Shown piece after piece: positions 10,393-52,565 of a stretch of DNA of 52,601 nt. Position 1 is the first letter of the stretch; each line of letters begins with the position of its first letter. The stretch comes from a phage, in the NCBI GenBank assembly GCA_026686805.1, contig GCA_026686805.1_3949.1. The stretch is one strand, 5' to 3'. Under the pieces are notes generated by a model. It was not told the origin of the DNA. It made no database searches and saw only the letters and a list, made by a program, of their open reading frames with translations. The position numbers were made by a program, and so were the translations under genes.

Positions 10393-10416
10393 TTGACAAA
10401 GTACTTGACAAGGTGT
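10393..10416 (+). promoter_or_regulatory. conserved element gttgacaaWgtacttgacaaggtgt with tandem TTGACA boxes (copy 1)
   Basis: near-identical copy at 52541-52565; lies in divergent intergenic region upstream of the + strand gene at 10543. Confidence 0.35.
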
Positions 10417-10542: not shown

Positions 10543-10914
10543 ATGAAAAACAGAACAAACAAAGGCCAGTTTAAAAAAGGCCAATCTGGAAACCCATCTG
10601 GAAGACCAAAAGGCTCTCGCAACAAAAGCTCACTTGTAAAAGCTCAACTGACCATTGACAATTCTGCTGAGTTTGCTGCAAAGTTATTTGAAGCGATTGT
10701 TACAAGGGATGCTGCTAAGCTTGCAGAGTTCGGGTTAAACACAGATGACGTAACCATCAAGAGTATGATTGAGGTCGGTAAAACTATCTTTACTCACTCA
10801 GCAGGTGAGATGAAAGCACTTGCAGCAGACACTAAGAAGACTCCTGATAATGGTGGTCAACAACAGACAGATAACAAACCAACGTTCTCTGCTGTAGCGA
10901 CTCTTAAAAAATAA
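10543..10914 (+). CDS. hypothetical protein with basic N-terminal GNPSGRPKG (AT-hook-like) motif
   Basis: ORF with AAGAGG RBS; motif KGQSGNPSGRPKGSRNK suggests nucleic-acid binding (inference). Confidence 0.55.
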   Translation: MKNRTNKGQFKKGQSGNPSGRPKGSRNKSSLVKAQLTIDNSAEFAAKLFEAIVTRDAAKLAEFGLNTDDVTIKSMIEVGKTIFTHSAGEMKALAADTKKTPDNGGQQQTDNKPTFSAVATLKK

Positions 10915-10925
10915 TTTTAAAAGGT

Positions 10926-10961
10926 GTTGACAGACTCTATAAAGTTGCTCTAAAGTCTGTC
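10926..10961 (+). promoter_or_regulatory. perfect 9-bp inverted repeat (tgacagact / agtctgtca) containing a TTGACA box, between two genes
   Basis: seen directly; hairpin 10927-10961 with 17-nt loop; could be terminator-like hairpin and/or operator/promoter. Confidence 0.3.
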
Positions 10962-10995
10962 ACATCAACAAACAAATGAGAGAAGAGAGTAAAAT

Positions 10996-12411
10996 ATGAG
11001 CGAATTATTTAAACATGCGCACCTTCATGCAGGTCGAACTGAAAATGGTGCTGTAAACCATACTTCATCAATGTCTGCTCTTGTAGACTTTTACAAAGCT
11101 GCTGGTTCAAGCCGTAGCAACGTAGAAATCTTACCAGACCTGTTCTACAAAGCTTTGCGTGAGGATGTTGATGTTGTAGTTCGTATTTTGCTTCATATGC
11201 GAGATGTACGAGAAGGTATGGGTGAGCGTAAAGCCTTCAGAACTGTTTTACTTCAAGCGATTGAAGACAAAGTTTTAGAGCCTACGCAGGTTCTTCGCAT
11301 TATGGATAAGATTGCAGAACTTGGTCGTTTTGATGACTTCAAAATCTTCGTAGGTACTCGTTTCGAGACAGATGCCTTCAAACATCTAGAAGCAGCATTA
11401 CTAGACCCTGCAACAGCAGGTTTGGCGGCTAAGTGGTTACCACGAGTCAAACCACGTCATAAGCAGTTTGTAAAACGTTTCTGCAAGTTTGCCAACTTGA
11501 GTGAGAAAGAGTACCGCACACTGTTGTCTGCACTATCTGATACAGTTGAGCAAAAAATCTCTGCTAATGAGTTTGGTAAGATTGACTACAGTAAGATTCC
11601 TTCACTTGCTGCTGCACGTTACCAAAAACTGTTTAACCGCAAAGATGGAGAACGCTACAAAGCTTACATCGAGTCCTTATCAAAGGGTGAGGCTAAGATT
11701 AATGCTGGTGCTGTTTACCCATACGATGTAATTAAATCTGTTAAGCATGGTAATGCAGATGTTGCTAATGAGCAGTGGAAAGCACTACCAAACTGGATGG
11801 CAGAGGGTGAAAACATCTTGTGTATGTCTGATGTTTCAAGCTCAATGTCTTGGGTGAATTTTGGTTCAATTACTGCTCTTGATATTGGTGTTTCACTTGC
11901 ATTGTATGTAGCAGAACGTAATACAGGTTGCTTTAAGAATGAGTTGATGGTTTATTCAACAAACCCTCACTTCATCGAACTGAGTGGTGATTTACGAAAC
12001 CGTCATCGTCAGGTGATGCGACACGTTGAATATGGCTCAACTAACTTACAAGCAGCTTTTGACCGTATTCTTGAAACAGGTAAAAGAAACAACTTGACTC
12101 AGAAAGATATGCCAAGTAAGCTTATCATCTTCTCCGATATGGAGTTCAATCAGGTTGATGGAGCTAACGGTCGTACAAACTTTGAAGCAATTCGTAGTAA
12201 GTACAAAAAAGCTGGATACGAAATGCCTCAACTGGTATTCTGGTACTTAGCAAACCGTAATGGTACTTGCGAAGTGTCTGTTAAGGATAACGGTGTAGCA
12301 ATGGTATCTGGTTTTTCTCCAGCTACTTTAAAAGCTCTGCTTGGTGGTGAGAAGTTTGACCCAATCAGTGTAATGCTCAAAGCAGTAATGATTGACCGTT
12401 ATATCTGGTAA
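10996..12411 (+). CDS. von Willebrand factor A (vWA) domain protein with MIDAS motif, N-terminal helical domain
   Basis: DxSxS MIDAS-like motif (MSDVSSSMS) followed by hydrophobic strand ...LIIFSDMEFNQ; 471 aa; RBS present. Confidence 0.55.
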   Translation: MSELFKHAHLHAGRTENGAVNHTSSMSALVDFYKAAGSSRSNVEILPDLFYKALREDVDVVVRILLHMRDVREGMGERKAFRTVLLQAIEDKVLEPTQVLRIMDKIAELGRFDDFKIFVGTRFETDAFKHLEAALLDPATAGLAAKWLPRVKPRHKQFVKRFCKFANLSEKEYRTLLSALSDTVEQKISANEFGKIDYSKIPSLAAARYQKLFNRKDGERYKAYIESLSKGEAKINAGAVYPYDVIKSVKHGNADVANEQWKALPNWMAEGENILCMSDVSSSMSWVNFGSITALDIGVSLALYVAERNTGCFKNELMVYSTNPHFIELSGDLRNRHRQVMRHVEYGSTNLQAAFDRILETGKRNNLTQKDMPSKLIIFSDMEFNQVDGANGRTNFEAIRSKYKKAGYEMPQLVFWYLANRNGTCEVSVKDNGVAMVSGFSPATLKALLGGEKFDPISVMLKAVMIDRYIW

Positions 12412-12420
12412 AAAGTTTTA

Positions 12421-12457
12421 AAAAGGGTATTGACAATGTGTTTGATACCCTTTAATA
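12421..12457 (+). promoter_or_regulatory. sigma70-like promoter TTGACA-17-TAATAT embedded in a perfect 9-bp inverted repeat, upstream of the tRNA array
   Basis: -35 ttgaca 12429-12434, 17-nt spacer, -10 taatat 12452-12457; inverted repeat aaagggtat(12421-12429)/atacccttt(12444-12452). Confidence 0.45.
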
Positions 12458-12576
12458 TGTTCTACATAGAAACGAAACGAGAGCTTTTCTAAGATACTGA
12501 AAAATATTTTAAAAAAGTTCTTGACAACCACTAAAAAATAATGTTAAAGTGGTTACATAGAGTTTGAAAAGTTTAT

Positions 12577-12653
12577 CTCTGTTTAGCTCAGCTTGGTAGA
12601 GCGTTCCGTTTGGGGCGGTAAGGCCGGAGGTTCAAGTCCTCCAACAGAGACCA
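12577..12653 (+). tRNA. tRNA-Pro (anticodon TGG)
   Basis: hand-folded cloverleaf: acceptor ctctgtt/aacagag, D-arm gctcagcttggtagagc, anticodon loop ttTGGgg, T-loop ttcaagt, CCA encoded. Confidence 0.65.
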
Positions 12654-12828: not shown

Positions 12829-12905
12829 TGCGGGTATAGAGAAAGGGCGTCTCACATGTCTCATTAGCATGGTATCGGCAGGTTCGACTCCTGCACCCGC
12901 CTCCA
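12829..12905 (+). tRNA. tRNA with CAT anticodon (Met or Ile-lysidine type)
   Basis: anticodon stem catgt/gcatg, loop ctCATta, T-arm gcagg-ttcgact-cctgc, CCA encoded; acceptor has a mismatch at one end so boundaries +/-1. Confidence 0.6.
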
Positions 12906-13067: not shown

Positions 13068-13155
13068 GTGTCGTTATCCCGTAGATGGTAGCGGTGGGGA
13101 CTGTAAATCCCTTGTCATTGAGACTCGGTAGGTTCGACTCCTACACGGCACACCA
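13068..13155 (+). tRNA. tRNA-Tyr (anticodon GTA), long variable arm
   Basis: acceptor gtgtcgt/acggcac, anticodon stem gggga/tccct, loop ctGTAaa, long variable arm, T-arm gtagg-ttcgact-cctac, CCA. Confidence 0.7.
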
Positions 13156-14410: not shown

Positions 14411-14439
14411 TTGACATTGAGATGCGACTACTTTATAGT
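14411..14439 (+). promoter_or_regulatory. sigma70-like promoter TTGACA-17-TATAGT inside the tRNA array
   Basis: -35 ttgaca 14411-14416, 17-nt spacer, -10 tatagt 14434-14439. Confidence 0.5.
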
Positions 14440-14643: not shown

Positions 14644-14725
14644 CGGGGCGTATCTCAGCGGTCTTCTAAACCGCCGTTAACCGAGTAAGTGGAGTATGCG
14701 GGTTCGAGTCCTGCCGCCTCGACCA
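14644..14725 (+). tRNA. atypical tRNA-like gene, possible tRNA-Arg (anticodon TCT); D-arm not placeable, 23-nt region between anticodon and T arms
   Basis: acceptor cggggcg/cgcctcg, perfect anticodon arm gcggt-ctTCTaa-accgc, T-arm gcggg-ttcgagt-cctgc, CCA; geometry non-canonical. Confidence 0.35.
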
Positions 14726-37810: not shown

Positions 37811-38986
37811 ATGGCAGTAGGTGAAATTCAAATTAGTGCCTTGCCACAAGCGGCCTTACCAATCGATTTGAGTGATATCTTCCACCTTAAGCAAGGTGTT
37901 GAGGATAAAAGATGTACGCTTGAGCAGTTGTTAGCACCTCACACATCTTTGAGGAATAACCCTCATGGTGTAACTAAATCACAAGTAGGTCTTGATAATG
38001 TTATTAACTCTCTTCAATTAGTTGCAGCTAATAACTTGTCAGACATTGTAAATGTTGCTGAGGCAAGAGCAAATCTACAAATTATGTCGTCAGAGGAAGT
38101 GAATAACTTAATTCAGCAACATATTGACGATAAAAGCAACCCACACAACACAACGAAAGCACAGGTTGGTTTAAGTAATGTTCAGAACTGGACAACATCT
38201 AATCTGTACAATGAAGATGCTGATAAGTATGCTACAGCGAGAGCAGTGAATAATCTATACAAAGCTATCCAAGCATCATATCCAGTGGGTACTATTCATC
38301 TATCTGTTAACTCTGCTAACCCATCCACTTACTTGCTTTGTGGAGGTACTTGGGAGTTAGTTTCTAAAGGTAGAGCACTAGTTGGTTATGATACAGATTC
38401 TAGACCTGTTGGTTCAACGTTTGGTTCTCAGACTGTAGCATTAACAAATAATAATTTACCAGCGCATACTCACTCTATCTATCTAACAGGTGGTGGTCAT
38501 ACACACTCTGCAAGTGTATCTATCTCTAGTTTTGATTATGGTTCAAAAAGTACATCAACTTTTGATTACGGTACAAAAACGACTAATAGTGCTGGTGCTC
38601 ACACTCACACGTTTAGTGGCACAACAAGTAATGCTGGTAACCACAACCATAGAGTCCCTATGAGGGGTAATGATAGGGGTGGCACAAACGCTATTACTGC
38701 ATCTGCTGATGCTGGTGTTGGTAATGCTATGTATACTGATTTAGCTGGTGCTCACACCCATAGCTTCTCAGGTACAACTGCATCATCTGGTGCTCATAGC
38801 CATACTGTCGCAATTGGTGCTCACAGCCACACTGTTAATATTGGTTCGCACAGTCATACAGGCACTGTTACTGTTTCTAGCTCTGAGCACACACACTCAG
38901 GGACATCTGGTTCTGTTGGTGGTGGTCAAGCTTTCAGTGTTGAGCAGCCATCTTTTGTAGTGTATGTGTGGCAGAGAACAGCTTAA
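37811..38986 (+). CDS. tail fiber protein with multiple HxH repeats
   Basis: C-terminal half contains repeated HTHS/HSHT/HNHR motifs and ends ...QAFSVEQPSFVVYVWQRTA, paralogous to the C-terminus of the next gene. Confidence 0.65.
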   Translation: MAVGEIQISALPQAALPIDLSDIFHLKQGVEDKRCTLEQLLAPHTSLRNNPHGVTKSQVGLDNVINSLQLVAANNLSDIVNVAEARANLQIMSSEEVNNLIQQHIDDKSNPHNTTKAQVGLSNVQNWTTSNLYNEDADKYATARAVNNLYKAIQASYPVGTIHLSVNSANPSTYLLCGGTWELVSKGRALVGYDTDSRPVGSTFGSQTVALTNNNLPAHTHSIYLTGGGHTHSASVSISSFDYGSKSTSTFDYGTKTTNSAGAHTHTFSGTTSNAGNHNHRVPMRGNDRGGTNAITASADAGVGNAMYTDLAGAHTHSFSGTTASSGAHSHTVAIGAHSHTVNIGSHSHTGTVTVSSSEHTHSGTSGSVGGGQAFSVEQPSFVVYVWQRTA

Positions 38987-38996
38987 TTTCTTTACA

Positions 38997-39018
38997 GGGG
39001 CTATAAAGCCCCTTTTAA
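38997..39018 (+). terminator. hairpin between the two tail fiber genes
   Basis: aggggc-tataaa-gcccct followed by ttttaag (short U tract). Confidence 0.3.
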
Positions 39019-39032
39019 GAGGAAAATTCATA

Positions 39033-41582
39033 ATGGCAGATTACAAATTGAGTCAATTAAACTCAATCGACACAATTCGTTCAGAAGACCTATTGCACAT
39101 CAGAGTTAAGAAAAGACCTGAAATGTTGGGTGATGAAGACCGCAGAATGACCTATCAAGACTTCTTAGCTTCCTTCAAACTAGAAAGGTTTGTTCAGATT
39201 GCTGGAAGTAATATGACTGGGGATTTAGGTATTGTCAAGTTACTTTATGGTGGTAAGGCAGTATTTGACCCTACAGGTTCTTCTGAAATTACTATTGGGG
39301 ATGTTTTAAAGACTTTTAAACTTAATGCAAATGGTCTTAAACTAACTATTGCAGATGCTTCAAGGTCAGCAACTGTTTATCATACTCTGAATAAGCCAAG
39401 TCCTAATGAGCTTGGTATGAGAACTAATGAAGAGAATGACGCAAGATATGCAAGACTTGCTATCACAAACACATTCTCTGGAACTCAAAATATTCAAGGT
39501 GATGCTAACTTACTTCGCCTTAGAAACCAAAATGCAAATAATGCACAATACATCGAAGGTGTAAACCTAGATGGTTCGGCTAGATGGTGGGTTGGTATTG
39601 GTAGTAATGGCTCTGATGAAGTAAAGCTGTACAATAACAAATACAACTCAGCCTTGACTGTTGCAAGTAATGTCTCTGTTAATAAGTCTTTAGCAATCAC
39701 TGGTCAAGTTCAACCTTCAGATTTCTCTAACTTAGATGCTAGATACTTCACTCAGACAGTTGCTAATCAGAGATTTGCACAGTTAGCTGCTAATAATAAT
39801 TTCACGGGCACTAACACGTTTAGTAGAAATCTAACCATCATTAGTGACAGTGCTGCTTTAAGGTTGAAAAATGCAACAGCTAGCTCACTATTCATTCAGG
39901 GTGTTGACTCTCAGAACACTAACAGGTGGTATGTAGGGAACGGGGATAACACAGCCTCTGTGCTGCTACACAACTATGTACACGGTTCAAATATCAGGCT
40001 TGATAATGGCTATATCTCAGTCAACCAGAACTTCAGAATCACTGGTCAAATTCAACCTTCGGATTGGACTAATATTGACTCTAGATATATTCCGGCAGCA
40101 ACATTAAGTACGATTGCAAGGACTAATGCACAAAATACTTTTAATGGTGTACAGAAAGTTGTTACGGATAATGAAGCCCTAATTGTGAAAAACTCTACTC
40201 AGAACAGACCATTGTATATCCGTGGTGTGGACACTGCTAATGTGTCAAGGTGGTGGGTAGGTGTTGGTGGGGCAGATACTAATGATGTAACCCTAAATAA
40301 CAGTTATTCTGGAACCCAATTGGTTCTCGGGAATACAACATCATACATTAACAAAACATTGACTATTGCTGGACAAGTTCAACCTTCAGATTTCTCTAAC
40401 TTAGATGCTAGATACTTTACGCAAAGTGCTAGTGATAGTAGATACCTAAGAATCAGAAGCACTAGCTTCAATGTGGGAAACACTGATAAGTGGGCTAAAA
40501 TTGCCACTGTTGTGATGCCACAATCAGCATCCACTGCTGTTATTGAGGTATTTGGTGGGTCAGGTTTTAATATTAATACACCAAACCAAGCAGGTAAATG
40601 TGAAATTGTTCTGCGAACTTCAAATAACAATCCAAAGGGCTTAAATGTTGTTGCTTGGAGAACATCAGAGAACACCATTATCAGGGATATTGGTTATGTG
40701 AATACTTCTGGAGACACCTATGATATTTACTATCTTGCTGGTACGTATCAAAACAGCACAACGACAAGGGTTCAGTCTTCTAGTAATGCAAGTGTACAGT
40801 TGTTTGAAGTCCCACAGACATTTGATGATGCTCCACAAGGTATTGTGAAGGGTACAATTGCAAAATACTACACAAGTTTGCAAAAACCAACCCCTTCAGA
40901 TATTGGTGCATACACTAAAGCAGAAACTGACCAGAAGATTGCAGAAGCAATTAGTGACTCTACAGACCTGAATAAAATCTATCCAGTAGGTATTGTGACG
41001 TGGTTTAACAGTAATGTCAACCCTAATACAGCACTTCCTGGGTTAACTTGGACGTACCTGAACAATGGTGTTGGTAGAACTATTAGAATTGCAGCAGCAA
41101 ACGGTTCAGATGTTGCTACAACTGGTGGTTCAGACTCTGTAACGTTGTCTGTTGGTAACTTACCTTCACACACGCACAGCTTCTCTGCTACTACTTCATC
41201 ATTTGACTATGGTACTAAGACTTCTAGCACAACTGGTAACCACAACCACAACAGAGGTACTATGGAGATTACTGGTTCATTTGGTTACTTCAGAAGTGAC
41301 GCTAGTAGCTTCTACACAGCAAGTGGTGCATTCTACCTCGGTAGTCAGGCAGGTTCTAAAGGGTATACTGGTAACAACTTTACTAATGGTATCCCTGTCA
41401 ACTTCAACGCATCAAGAAACTGGTCTGGTGTAACGAATACAACAGGTAACCACAGCCACACTGTTGGTATTGGTGCTCACAGCCACACAGTTAGCGGTAA
41501 CACAGGTGGTACTGGTTCTGGTTCAGCATTTAGTGTTACTAACCAGTTCTATAAGTTAATGGCTTGGGTAAGAACTGCTTAA
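39033..41582 (+). CDS. tail fiber protein with three internal tandem repeats and HxH-rich C-terminus
   Basis: start set at ATG 39033 (AAGAGGAAA RBS) instead of track 38964; three ~100-aa repeats each ending ..ITGQVQPSDFSNLDARY..; C-terminus ...GNHSHTVGIGAHSHTV...SAFSVTNQFYKLMAWVRTA. Confidence 0.7.
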   Translation: MADYKLSQLNSIDTIRSEDLLHIRVKKRPEMLGDEDRRMTYQDFLASFKLERFVQIAGSNMTGDLGIVKLLYGGKAVFDPTGSSEITIGDVLKTFKLNANGLKLTIADASRSATVYHTLNKPSPNELGMRTNEENDARYARLAITNTFSGTQNIQGDANLLRLRNQNANNAQYIEGVNLDGSARWWVGIGSNGSDEVKLYNNKYNSALTVASNVSVNKSLAITGQVQPSDFSNLDARYFTQTVANQRFAQLAANNNFTGTNTFSRNLTIISDSAALRLKNATASSLFIQGVDSQNTNRWYVGNGDNTASVLLHNYVHGSNIRLDNGYISVNQNFRITGQIQPSDWTNIDSRYIPAATLSTIARTNAQNTFNGVQKVVTDNEALIVKNSTQNRPLYIRGVDTANVSRWWVGVGGADTNDVTLNNSYSGTQLVLGNTTSYINKTLTIAGQVQPSDFSNLDARYFTQSASDSRYLRIRSTSFNVGNTDKWAKIATVVMPQSASTAVIEVFGGSGFNINTPNQAGKCEIVLRTSNNNPKGLNVVAWRTSENTIIRDIGYVNTSGDTYDIYYLAGTYQNSTTTRVQSSSNASVQLFEVPQTFDDAPQGIVKGTIAKYYTSLQKPTPSDIGAYTKAETDQKIAEAISDSTDLNKIYPVGIVTWFNSNVNPNTALPGLTWTYLNNGVGRTIRIAAANGSDVATTGGSDSVTLSVGNLPSHTHSFSATTSSFDYGTKTSSTTGNHNHNRGTMEITGSFGYFRSDASSFYTASGAFYLGSQAGSKGYTGNNFTNGIPVNFNASRNWSGVTNTTGNHSHTVGIGAHSHTVSGNTGGTGSGSAFSVTNQFYKLMAWVRTA

Positions 41583-41661
41583 TCCCTTGTTGACTGATTG
41601 TTAAGATGGTGTTAATATTCTTTATGGGTATTCTCACCATCTTGGCTGATGAGGTGATTAA

Positions 41662-45748: not shown

Positions 45749-46029
45749 AATGACCTCAAAGTTATATTAAATTTTGTATTACATTGAGTATAAAAATAAG
45801 CTATAACACCTGACTTGTCAACAGATTTTATAGCTTATTTGGCAGATTTTTTATAAGGCTACTGCCATCCTTCCATACCAGACTACACCATGCCAGACCA
45901 GACTTCACATCACCTTACCGTGCAATACATGACTTAAAACCCTTTTAGAAGACTCTTAAGTGATGCTGGTGAGTACCCGTTGGTTTATGCTGCTCAGTAT
46001 ACTCACCATATTTTCTATGTCAACAACTT

Positions 46030-46176
46030 TTATATAAAAGCCCTGATAGCTATATGTGTTGCAAAACAGAAGATTGTGAACAAGAAACCCATTGCAAAGG
46101 ATGTGTTCAAAAGCTTACTTGTGATGTAAGATAACACAAAGATAACTAATGCAAACAGAATGATTGTACTTAACAT
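46030..46176 (-). CDS. possible small hydrophobic protein (48 aa)
   Basis: hand-translated ORF (MLSTIILFALVIFVLSYITSKLLNTSFAMGFLFTIFCFATHIAIRAFI) below the track's cutoff; weak RBS. Confidence 0.25.
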   Translation of the reverse strand: MLSTIILFALVIFVLSYITSKLLNTSFAMGFLFTIFCFATHIAIRAFI

Positions 46177-46179
46177 AGT

Positions 46180-52540: not shown

Positions 52541-52565
52541 GTTGACAATGTACTTGACAAGGTGT
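52541..52565 (+). promoter_or_regulatory. conserved element gttgacaaWgtacttgacaaggtgt with tandem TTGACA boxes (copy 2)
   Basis: near-identical to 10392-10416; upstream of polymerase start in a divergent region. Confidence 0.35.

Follow-up and report, generated by a model that had tools for sequence, protein, structure and literature searches.

Two short intergenic regions of a phage genome each hold a perfect inverted repeat lying over a TTGACA box, which raises the question of whether these repeats act at the DNA level on the promoters that they overlap, act as hairpins in RNA, or have no function of their own. The window (the whole stretch of DNA analyzed, 52,601 nt) belongs to Felixounavirus and has 98% identity to phage ASO1A. 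From about 10.5 to 45 kb, every gene lies on the + strand.

Inverted repeats and promoter-like sites

The upstream gene (10543..10914, +; 123 aa) encodes a DUF5681 protein (Pfam PF18932, E 2e-14), is annotated as a CDS in relatives, and is equivalent to gene 41 of Felix O1. The gene flanked by the two hairpins (10996..12411, +; 471 aa), equivalent to Felix O1 gene 42, combines DUF2828 with DUF7788, and its relatives are named vWFA protein or, in RefSeq, “RNA-binding protein”. Its product had no sequence match in PDB or NCBIfam, and its Pfam matches were DUF families only. A relationship to the Ro60/TROVE RNA-binding proteins was considered and dropped, as sequence comparison gave no confirmation. 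Further downstream lies an array of 25 tRNAs, the first of which is tRNA-Pro (12577..12653, +; ARAGORN and Rfam).

An earlier note on this DNA had described both open reading frames, which are present as it stated, and had placed a perfect 9-bp inverted repeat after each. Both repeats exist, at positions 1 nt higher than those given there: TGACAGACT at 10928-10936 pairs with AGTCTGTCA at 10954-10962, and AAAGGGTAT at 12422-12430 pairs with ATACCCTTT at 12445-12453. The same note's observations that both hairpins carry a TTGACA box, and that a TTGACA-17-TAATAT site overlaps the second repeat, held on inspection, since the repeats overlap two strong-looking sigma-70 promoter-like sites on the + strand, each matching the consensus at 10/12 positions. 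P1 consists of TTGACA (10927-10932), an 18-nt spacer and TAAAGT (10951-10956) behind an A/T-rich tract, AATAATTTTAAAAGGTG, and carries a “promoter” annotation in phage ASO1A. P2 consists of TTGACA (12430-12435), a 17-nt spacer and TAATAT (12453-12458) behind the UP-element-like AAAAAGTTTTAAAAAGGGTA. A further site of the same score that the earlier note did not contain, P3 (12521..12554, +), lies closer to the tRNA array than P2 and comprises TTGACA at 12521, an 18-nt spacer and TAAAGT with a TG upstream.

All three sites show a sigma-70 plus UP pattern, namely TTGACA, a spacer of 16-18 nt, TAnnnT, and an A/T-rich upstream tract (TTTTAAAAAG) at -40 to -60. Their hexamers are conserved across four genera. 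Both hexamers of P1 are kept in Felixounavirus, Suspvirus, Mooglevirus (as TAGAGT) and Erwinia phage Pistou (as TTGACA-17-TAAATT), and P2 is unchanged in all relatives but ESh22 (TAAGAT). As a class, promoter-like matches in the region were not above chance (32 observed, 34.6 expected); therefore, the argument for these promoters rests on their intergenic position and conservation.

Folding and conservation of H1 and H2

As + strand RNA, the first repeat is part of a 13-pair hairpin, H1 (10923..10966; MFE -15.6 kcal/mol, z -3.6), which begins 9 nt past the stop codon. Its outer helix (GGTGT 10923-10927 / ACATC 10962-10966) is separated by a bulged T at 10928, conserved as a single U, from an inner helix (GACAGACT 10929-10936 / AGTCTGTC 10954-10961) that closes a 17-nt loop (10937-10953). 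The second repeat lies within a 59-nt three-helix fold (12415..12473, +; RNAalifold and MFE) that begins 4 nt past the stop codon. Here, a closing helix (12415-12419/12469-12473) encloses both a mini hairpin (12456-12460/12464-12468) and H2 itself, a 12-bp hairpin (12422-12433/12442-12453) that starts 11 nt past the stop, has an 8-nt loop (12434-12441), and consists of three G-C, seven A-U and two G-U pairs, with an energy of about -12.6 kcal/mol (RNA fold z -2.7).

An intrinsic terminator would carry a U-rich tract of about 7-9 nt directly 3' of the stem, and on the + strand such a tract follows neither hairpin. H1 is not a canonical terminator, because it has no + strand U tract (its 3' flank is CATCAACAAACAAA / CAUCAACAAACAAA) and its 17-nt loop in this phage exceeds the usual terminator range of about 3-8 nt. 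By stability and loop size, the stem-loop of H2 is a marginal case for a terminator. The tail of H2, CCC-UUUAAUAUGUU, holds only three consecutive U and passes a lenient terminator scan only. In ESh22, the tail is poorer still (CCCUGUAAGAU), which together with the features of H1 makes canonical intrinsic termination doubtful. H2 is nevertheless already known as a predicted terminator: the Felix O1 genome paper (Whichard et al. 2010, PMC3185647, Table 2) lists a rho-independent terminator t42 after gene 42 (“gggtattgacaatgtgtttaatacccttt”, dG -10.2) and its complement t43, both predicted by TransTerm/MFOLD. The core of H2 equals t42, whose sequence is identical to the A-variant in relatives, so that t42/t43 and H2 are the same element. 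That paper lists neither H1 nor a promoter at t42, and leaves unremarked that a -35 box lies in the stem/loop and a -10 box in the tail. The combined terminator/promoter structure proposed in the earlier note is thus a fair label for H2, given the t42/t43 prediction.

About 50 relatives from three genera were compared. The stems are invariant or show G-U-compatible changes plus one compensatory change, all stem substitutions but one retain pairing, and the loops drift. For H1, the RNAalifold consensus of 26 distinct sequences from Felixounavirus, Suspvirus and Mooglevirus contains 12 pairs, none of them broken; at 10924/10965, G-U, A-U and G-C pairs are all found, and pairs 10934/10956 and 10935/10955 show only G-U or U-G replacements. 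When the promoter hexamers are set aside, variation is seen in 13 of 14 columns of the H1 loop and in 4 of 17 columns of its stem (Fisher P = 2e-4), and the columns compared are mostly promoter spacer, free of constraint from the promoter itself. For H2, the same comparison gave no significant difference (P = 0.15). The consensus of the H2 region contains 22 pairs with one double compensatory change (U-A to G-C, in one lineage), six one-sided compatible changes and one broken cell. Divergent lineages also rebuild the stems: H1 of Mordin has 4+12 bp and an 8-nt loop (-18.8 kcal/mol, z -4.3), that of IMG/VR contig L023 reaches -22.5 kcal/mol, and H2 of ESh22 has lost the outer A-U pairs and gained two inner pairs and a tetraloop. 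Because a G-U pair on the + strand becomes C-A on the - strand, the stability of the - strand RNA is erratic for H1 (-10.9 to -23.8 kcal/mol, while the + strand is never weaker than -15.0 kcal/mol) and is always lower for H2, where the + strand is the more stable in 15/15 sequences.

Covariation is thin, as only one double-sided compensatory change was found, in a single lineage. A covariation test by shuffled pair counts had no power because the changes are one-sided. Furthermore, parts of the stems coincide with the -35 box, the -10 box, the upstream tract and the start region, and these parts would be conserved anyway. In Erwinia phage Pistou, P1 is retained without a significant hairpin (z +1.4), and the DUF2828/vWFA gene is absent; the promoter of the tRNA array in this phage adjoins another hairpin, of 8 bp. 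In an Rfam 15 scan of the window, only tRNAs reached the gathering score, and permissive scans of 10880-11010 and 12395-12580 gave only chance-level matches far below threshold. A known RNA family was rejected on this ground.

Repeats at promoter-like sites elsewhere in the window

With perfect arms no shorter than 9 bp and a loop of 3-25 nt as the criterion, the window contains 12 repeats, compared with 6.3 +/- 2.3 expected from dinucleotide shuffles, so that one repeat alone is weak evidence. An 85-nt promoter region has about a 1.5% chance of containing such a repeat, and 5/12 repeats overlap intergenic promoter-like sites, namely P1, P2, 46023(-), 45821(-) and 41590(+). The probability of at least four of eight sites doing so is about 2e-6; the sites were chosen partly post hoc, 41590 having been noticed through its repeat. 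The MFE z-scores of intergenic promoter-like sites differed from those of coding ones only at a borderline level (P = 0.05), partly because the fixed window cut some arms.

Two of these sites have an architecture like that of H1 and H2. On the - strand, a hairpin at 45794..45840 combines a 13-bp perfect repeat with a 5-bp inner helix (RNA -17.8 kcal/mol, z -3.6). Its apical loop contains TTGACA (45821-45816), and its U-rich tail doubles as the -10 box TATTTT (45798-45793). It is invariant in 22 relatives, in which the region upstream is hypervariable. On the + strand, a TTGACT-17-TAATAT site (41590..41643) has a 9-bp perfect repeat (41603-41611/41635-41643) around its -10 box, and the resulting hairpin, 21 nt past the stop of an 872-aa ORF, reaches -23.7 kcal/mol as RNA (z -5.2). 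The remaining site (45967..46023, -) comprises TTGACA at 46023-46018, a 16-nt spacer and TATACT; its 9-bp repeat (46008-46000 / 45975-45967) overlaps the -10 box and spans the start region, with a fold z of -1.5. A 5-bp pair, AAAGT/ACTTT, is present at the promoter at 14411. No significant structure was found at the 10405 site or at P3. The P3 repeat is weak (7 bp, AACCACT 12526-12532 / AGTGGTT 12548-12554), and we dropped it as a third example, as its fold z is -1.4 and the energies in relatives are only -4 to -7 kcal/mol.

Possible roles of the overlapping signals

We favor, at about an even chance of being right, the reading that H1 and H2 are conserved + strand 3'-end RNA hairpins squeezed onto the promoter of the next gene. 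Most likely, the overlap itself comes from tightly packed signals for the end of one gene and the start of the next, and is not a new switch. The hairpins would form in the 3' untranslated tails of transcripts reading through from the DUF5681 gene and the vWFA-like gene, and most likely define or protect mRNA 3' ends. H2 may terminate transcription weakly as an intrinsic terminator, with its U-rich tail (UUUAAUAU) doubling as the -10 box of the next promoter, and H1, without a U tract, may be a pause site or a barrier to 3'-exonucleases. The TTGACA boxes would be separate, DNA-level signals, that is, strong host sigma-70 promoters with A/T-rich upstream tracts, of which P1 would restart transcription for the next gene and P2 and P3 for the tRNA array. 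The sequence, the folds, the pattern of conservation and the enrichment at promoter-like sites are observed here, whereas we infer that function resides in the + strand RNA, that 3' ends form at the hairpins, and that the promoters fire. The signals would overlap for lack of room in such short intergenic regions: the first of these, IGR1, measures 81 nt, less than the roughly 90 nt that a promoter should need together with an upstream tract and 5' leader. The unrelated arms and varied geometry at five sites fit independent elements packed together. RT-PCR of Felix O1 assigns ORFs 41, 42 and 44 together to the 25-min class, whereas ORFs 45-49 belong to the 5-min one; these classes give no hint that transcription breaks off strongly at H2, and they do not resolve the activity of P2 or P3.

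An alternative is that the hairpins act on the - strand, as intrinsic terminators of leftward, antisense transcripts, or that they are bidirectional terminators; unchecked, these antisense transcripts would leave the rightward gene block and enter the leftward lysis/tail operon. An A-rich tract lies just 5' of each hairpin on the + strand, so that the - strand hairpins are directly followed by a U tract: H1(-) reads ...GUCAACACC-UUUUAAAAUUAUUUUUU (-16.0 kcal/mol, z -2.7) and H2(-) reads GGGUAU...AUACCC-UUUUUAAAACUUUUU, the position of Felix O1 t43 on the complement (PMC3185647, Table 2). This left flank is invariant in all relatives, including ESh22, in which the right flank is altered. We nevertheless regard this reading as unlikely, as the genes around it all point rightward, no better-than-chance - strand promoter was found downstream, a promoter UP element would account for the A tract just as well, and most substitutions give G-U on the + strand and C-A on the - strand. 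Of comparably low probability is the view that the repeats have no function of their own and are by-products of promoter composition, in which an A-rich upstream tract faces a T-rich -10 region and TGACA/TGTCA is symmetric, together with the general conservation of short intergenic regions. About six perfect 9-bp repeats are expected in the window, strong covariation was not seen, the outer AAA/TTT pairs of H2 and the pair at 14411 follow from promoter composition, and P3 and the 10405 site lack significant structure. However, chance falls far short of explaining the enrichment at promoter-like sites, spacer positions in the H1 stem are conserved while adjacent spacer positions in the loop drift, longer stems of different sequence are rebuilt in divergent lineages, and pairing survives all stem substitutions except one.

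Regulation at the DNA level, in which the repeats would be operators for dimeric regulators or cruciforms that hide promoter elements under negative supercoiling and so make promoter activity dependent on time or supercoiling, is in our view highly improbable. Horwitz and Loeb reportedly engineered, in 1988, an E. coli promoter controlled by cruciform extrusion, which is a precedent for such control. Each repeat covers at least one promoter hexamer, and the timing of Felix O1 transcription with host polymerase alone is unexplained (PMC3185647). The arms (TGACAGACT, AAAGGGTAT, AACCACT, AAATAAGCTATAA, TGGTGAGTA and AAGATGGTG) nevertheless have no common sequence and leave gaps of 14-24 nt; arm spacing (8-24 nt) and register to the -35 and -10 boxes vary from site to site, so that one regulator cannot recognize them all; the operator reading offered earlier falls on this point. 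Extrusion of a cruciform is unfavorable for DNA hairpins as weak as these, with only -7 to -9 kcal/mol per strand and unpaired centers of 8-17 nt, and the tolerated substitutions create G-T mismatches that would weaken a duplex arm or the symmetry of half-sites. The earlier proposal that hairpin formation occludes the -35 box would require this extrusion and is therefore not supported; at the RNA level, the hairpins exist only in upstream read-through transcripts, where a -35 box has no meaning. Similarly improbable is a role in cis as RNA targets of a protein, such as the DUF2828/vWFA “RNA-binding protein”, with autoregulation or mRNA stabilization as the outcome, or as sites at which an endonuclease parts the mRNA from the tRNA precursor. 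H1 and H2 bracket exactly the DUF2828/vWFA gene, homologues of its product bear the RefSeq name given above, the single-U bulge of H1 is conserved, and Pistou lacks both the gene and H1. This correlation comes from a single phage, however, and the protein has no PDB or NCBIfam match and only DUFs in Pfam; like hairpins also occur at unrelated genes (45794-45840 and 41603-41643), and 12-16 bp makes a short stem for RNase III. A T7-type RNase III site was rejected for the same reason, as the stems have 12-16 pairs in all lineages compared with around 20 bp, about two helical turns, and often an internal loop in such sites.

Among known systems, this phage's own canonical terminators (such as GGCTCCTTCGGGAGCC-TTTTTT at 7559-7542) and those of Felix O1 (t5, t35 and t111) resemble H1 and H2 in being stem-loops 3' of a stop codon on the transcribed strand. 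They have GC-rich stems of 6-10 bp, 4-nt loops and runs of 5-6 T, whereas H1 and H2 are A/U-rich and have loops of 8-17 nt, with the U tract missing from H1 and interrupted in H2. Compact genomes such as those of phiX174, T4 and T7 contain intercistronic mRNA-stabilizing hairpins and inefficient terminators; we know of none among these that encloses the -35 or -10 box of the next promoter. In Pseudomonas phages, ONT-cappable-seq showed that most mapped 3' ends have a stable structure and that 84/268 are canonical terminators (PMC10914365). Both groups resemble H1 and H2 as read here, in that stable, non-canonical hairpins in short intergenic regions, with promoters nearby, mark or shield 3' ends.

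P1-P3 resemble the early promoters of T5 and T4 and rrnB P1-like UP promoters in their TTGACA box, 17-18 nt spacer, TAnnnT and upstream tract. They differ from strong sigma-70 phage early promoters in their -10 boxes, which match at only 4/6 positions, and embedding in a conserved hairpin is, to our knowledge, not a feature of that class. An inverted repeat within the promoter region is shared with the early promoters of the N4 virion RNAP and with the Horwitz and Loeb lac promoter. The N4 hairpins have stems of 5-7 bp, 3-nt loops and a conserved sequence read by a phage RNAP, in contrast to H1 and H2, which have loops of 8-17 nt, unrelated sequences and sigma-70-type elements. An N4-type or supercoil-extruded hairpin promoter was excluded by these long centers and the weak DNA folds (-7 to -9 kcal/mol), and no RNA polymerase of phage origin is described in the Felix O1 paper (PMC3185647). 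A literature search on Felix O1-like phages found no transcriptome, and one on published overlaps of terminators and promoters found nothing useful.

A very unlikely extension of the packing model is a terminator-in-promoter module, in which the hairpin of the incoming RNA arises from the -35/spacer DNA of the next promoter and the RNA is released at its -10 box. Polymerases from upstream would then be removed or handed over for re-initiation at a strong promoter, the promoter would be insulated from occlusion, and the end of one unit would be coupled to the start of the next, which could help a phage that has neither a polymerase nor a sigma factor of its own to order transcription. The locus would be of greater interest only if termination and re-initiation were mechanistically coupled in this manner. 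If the packing model holds, the gain is mainly better annotation of widely used therapeutic and typing phages, with strong promoters placed before the tRNA array (P2 and P3) and the vWFA-like gene (P1), and with the Felix O1 “terminator” t42/t43 sharing its DNA with a promoter. It would be an example of how compact phage genomes stack RNA- and DNA-level signals on the same bases, which matters when these intergenic regions are edited or reused as genetic parts.

Hairpins and promoter-like sites ahead of the tRNA array

The 2.3 kb around the hairpins H1 and H2 showed 98% identity to Escherichia phage vB_EcoM_ASO1A and 94-98% identity to over 200 Felix O1/wV8-like phages (genus Felixounavirus). 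On the + strand, H1 follows the ORF 10543..10914, a DUF5681 domain match at the position of Felix O1 gene 41. H2 follows the ORF 10996..12411, at the position of gene 42, whose product has DUF2828 and DUF7788 as its sole Pfam matches and none among PDB sequences or in NCBIfam. Relatives call this product “vWFA protein” or, in RefSeq, “RNA-binding protein”; proteins of 29-41% identity to it are present in unrelated large phages. Its gene, with a hairpin on either side, lies immediately 5′ of an array of 25 tRNA genes (+ strand; ARAGORN, Rfam), which starts with tRNA-Pro at 12577.

The two perfect 9-bp inverted repeats described in the earlier note were both present, 1 nt away from where it had placed them (arms 10928-10936/10954-10962 in H1 and 12422-12430/12445-12453 in H2). 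A consensus scan located, on the + strand, the promoter-like site P1 on H1 (TTGACA, 18-nt spacer, TAAAGT, from 10927), which carries a promoter annotation in the ASO1A record, and confirmed, as a pattern, the previously noticed TTGACA-17-TAATAT match overlapping H2 (P2, TTGACA at 12430). The scan also found P3 (TTGACA, 18-nt spacer, TAAAGT, TG upstream; 12521-12554), missing from that note, 91 nt past P2 and 27 nt ahead of tRNA-Pro. TTTTAAAAAG-type, UP-element-like tracts lie upstream of all three. The start-region motif TACATAGA common to P2 and P3 suggests that they are tandem promoters for the tRNA array. The fold of the repeat at P3 was not significant (z -1.4).

In + strand RNA, H1 has 13 pairs and a 17-nt loop (-15.6 kcal/mol, z -3.6), comprising an outer helix GGUGU/ACAUC (10923-10927 with 10962-10966), a bulged U at 10928 and an inner helix GACAGACU/AGUCUGUC (10929-10936 with 10954-10961). 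H2 has 12 pairs (12422-12433 with 12442-12453), two of them G-U, and an 8-nt loop; it is contained in a 59-nt three-helix fold predicted by RNAalifold (12415-12473) that begins 4 nt past the stop codon. H1 reaches over P1 from just 5′ of the -35 to about +3, and the H2 fold covers P2 between about -50 and about +8. Since transcription is predicted to start at the 3′ arms or further downstream, the hairpins would be formable only in transcripts from upstream. No Rfam family matched the H1 or H2 regions. H2 had been predicted to be a terminator, since “gggtattgacaatgtgtttaatacccttt” is listed as the rho-independent terminator t42 in Felix O1, with its complement as t43 (PMC3185647, Table 2); the same paper lists neither a promoter at H2 nor H1.

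Conservation and strand

One 9-bp repeat alone is weak evidence: the window held 12 such perfect repeats with loops spanning 3-25 nt, where shuffles gave 6.3 +/- 2.3. Five of the 12, however, overlap intergenic promoter-like sites, namely P1, P2, 46023(-), 45821(-) and 41590(+), and the probability of at least 4 of 8 sites being overlapped is ~2e-6 (chance per site 0-4%), the sites being in part a post hoc choice. When fold z-scores were compared, more crudely, between intergenic and coding promoter-like sites, the difference was borderline (P = 0.05). We compared both intergenic regions in about 50 relatives from IMG/VR, metagenomes and GenBank, covering Felixounavirus, Suspvirus, Mooglevirus and Erwinia phage Pistou. 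Among 26 distinct H1 sequences, no consensus pair was broken; pair 10924/10965 was G-U in 13, A-U in 8 and G-C in 5, and all changes at 10934/10956 and 10935/10955 led to G-U or U-G. Outside the promoter hexamers, 13/14 loop columns of H1 varied versus 4/17 stem columns (P = 2e-4), a contrast that the promoter alone is insufficient to explain, because the loop and much of the stem share its spacer. In divergent lineages, longer H1 stems were built from different sequence, as in Mordin, where a stem of 4+12 bp folds at -18.8 kcal/mol (z -4.3), and in an IMG/VR contig (-22.5 kcal/mol). The 22-pair H2 fold had one-sided compatible changes at six pairs and one double compensatory change (12456/12468, U-A to G-C, in Shigella phage ESh22); its single broken cell, also in ESh22, was offset by two added inner pairs and a tetraloop. 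The stem-loop contrast in variability was not significant at H2, and Pistou conserved P1 with no significant hairpin there. Covariation was thin, and shuffle controls were powerless. The observation at H1 and H2 is real and beyond chance, and the elements are conserved; that the repeats are a functionless by-product of composition is unlikely.

Both hairpins are followed directly by U runs on the - strand, owing to the A-rich tract upstream, as expected of antisense or bidirectional terminators. In contrast, substitutions were mostly to G-U on the + strand, which is C-A on the - strand; H1 stability across relatives was -15.0 to -22.5 kcal/mol on the + strand versus -10.9 to -23.8 on the - strand, and H2 was more stable on the + strand in 15/15 sequences. 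These results favor + strand RNA, and - strand terminators are improbable.

Roles of the hairpins

The earlier note had also suggested operators, or hairpins occluding the -35 box. The arm sequences were unrelated among the five hairpin sites and the registers differed: H2 and the 45794-45840 hairpin enclose the -35, H1 bridges -35 to -10, the 41603-41643 hairpin encloses the -10, and the 45967-46008 hairpin spans the start. A common DNA-binding regulator was therefore excluded, leaving the operator idea unsupported. The DNA hairpins are weak (-7 to -9 kcal/mol) with centres of 8-17 nt; thus cruciform extrusion, and with it -35 occlusion, is unlikely, and any DNA-level operator or cruciform is very doubtful. 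Slightly less probable still is that the hairpins are RNA sites for processing or for binding a protein, which might be the flanked putative “RNA-binding” protein.

What the sites have in common is a stable + strand hairpin shortly past a stop codon, where the space between genes is not long enough for hairpin and promoter side by side (81 nt between 10914 and 10996). On these grounds, we read the hairpins as probable 3′-end elements of the upstream messages, a reading whose every functional step we infer. The U-rich tails of H2 (UUUAAUAU) and the 45794-45840 hairpin (UUAUUUUUAU) double as the -10, and these two could serve as weak intrinsic terminators. A U tract is absent at H1 and 41603-41643, which would more likely cause polymerase pausing or block 3′-exonucleases. 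A combined terminator/promoter, as proposed before, is reasonable for H2, given t42 in Felix O1, and not for H1. The promoters would be independent DNA signals restarting transcription. The 3′-end reading fits phage transcriptomes from long reads, where stable hairpins mark most 3′ ends and canonical terminators are a minority (PMC10914365). As intergenic 3′ hairpins that overlap promoters, H1 and H2 represent an already-known type of element, here in a compact phage. A mechanism that deliberately couples termination to renewed initiation at the embedded promoter would be more interesting, if true, and is quite unlikely.

By RT-PCR in Felix O1, ORFs 41, 42 and 44 belong to the 25-min class and ORFs 45-49 to the 5-min class, which gives no indication of a strong boundary there, at H2. 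The Felix O1 authors call passage through the many terminators, and the timing of transcription, unknown (PMC3185647). We found no transcript-end data in the literature on Felix O1-like phages.

Other elements in the window and in relatives

Pistou lacks the vWFA-like gene; in its stead, between the conserved P1 and the tRNA array, lies an unannotated tRNA-like gene (2498-2570 in Pistou) with an abnormal 2-nt “anticodon” (ARAGORN). In the window, the Rfam tRNA model scored 31.7 bits at 14644-14722 (+; gathering score 29), where ARAGORN called no gene, and the ARAGORN calls tRNA-Met 12829-12905 and tRNA-Tyr 13068-13155 were missing from the Rfam gathering list. All three may be degenerate or pseudo-tRNAs.

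A non-coding - strand stretch of ~170 nt, 3′ of the 46023 site, contains 5-nt periodic NNGGT repeats (~45925-45865). The region 45749-46179 (-) is hypervariable in relatives, with 1-3 tandem modules, and ends at the invariant 13-bp hairpin 45840-45794. In every module, a leader (TTTTTAAAAGGTCTTTAAGAGGGTCTTTTAATRAGG) and a hairpin (GGGTAGTTAGTCTCAGCTAC...GAGACTTACC), both conserved, are combined with 10-16 NNGGT units. The region had no Rfam match; its sequence resembles that of a non-coding RNA in which triplet repeats form a protein-binding array.

The 24-nt motif TTGACAANGTACTTGACAAGGTGT, whose two TTGACA boxes are spaced 12 nt apart, occurs exactly twice (10393-10416 and 52542-52565, +; chance expectation, none), and both copies head gene blocks that are divergently transcribed. 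The first copy corresponds to “P41” of Felix O1, and the motif is perhaps an early promoter or a regulator site that the blocks share. The hairpin in 41583-41650 (+; -23.7 kcal/mol, z -5.2, 12+7 pairs, no U tract) lies 21 nt past the stop of the 872-aa ORF 38964..41582, just ahead of a 64-aa ORF, and has within it the TAATAT of a TTGACT-17-TAATAT site. Finally, 1229-2923 is a 1.7-kb stretch without long ORFs, with many short TTAACA/CTTAACAATTT-type repeats, small tandem arrays and two of the 12 perfect inverted repeats (1304-1339 and 2765-2790).
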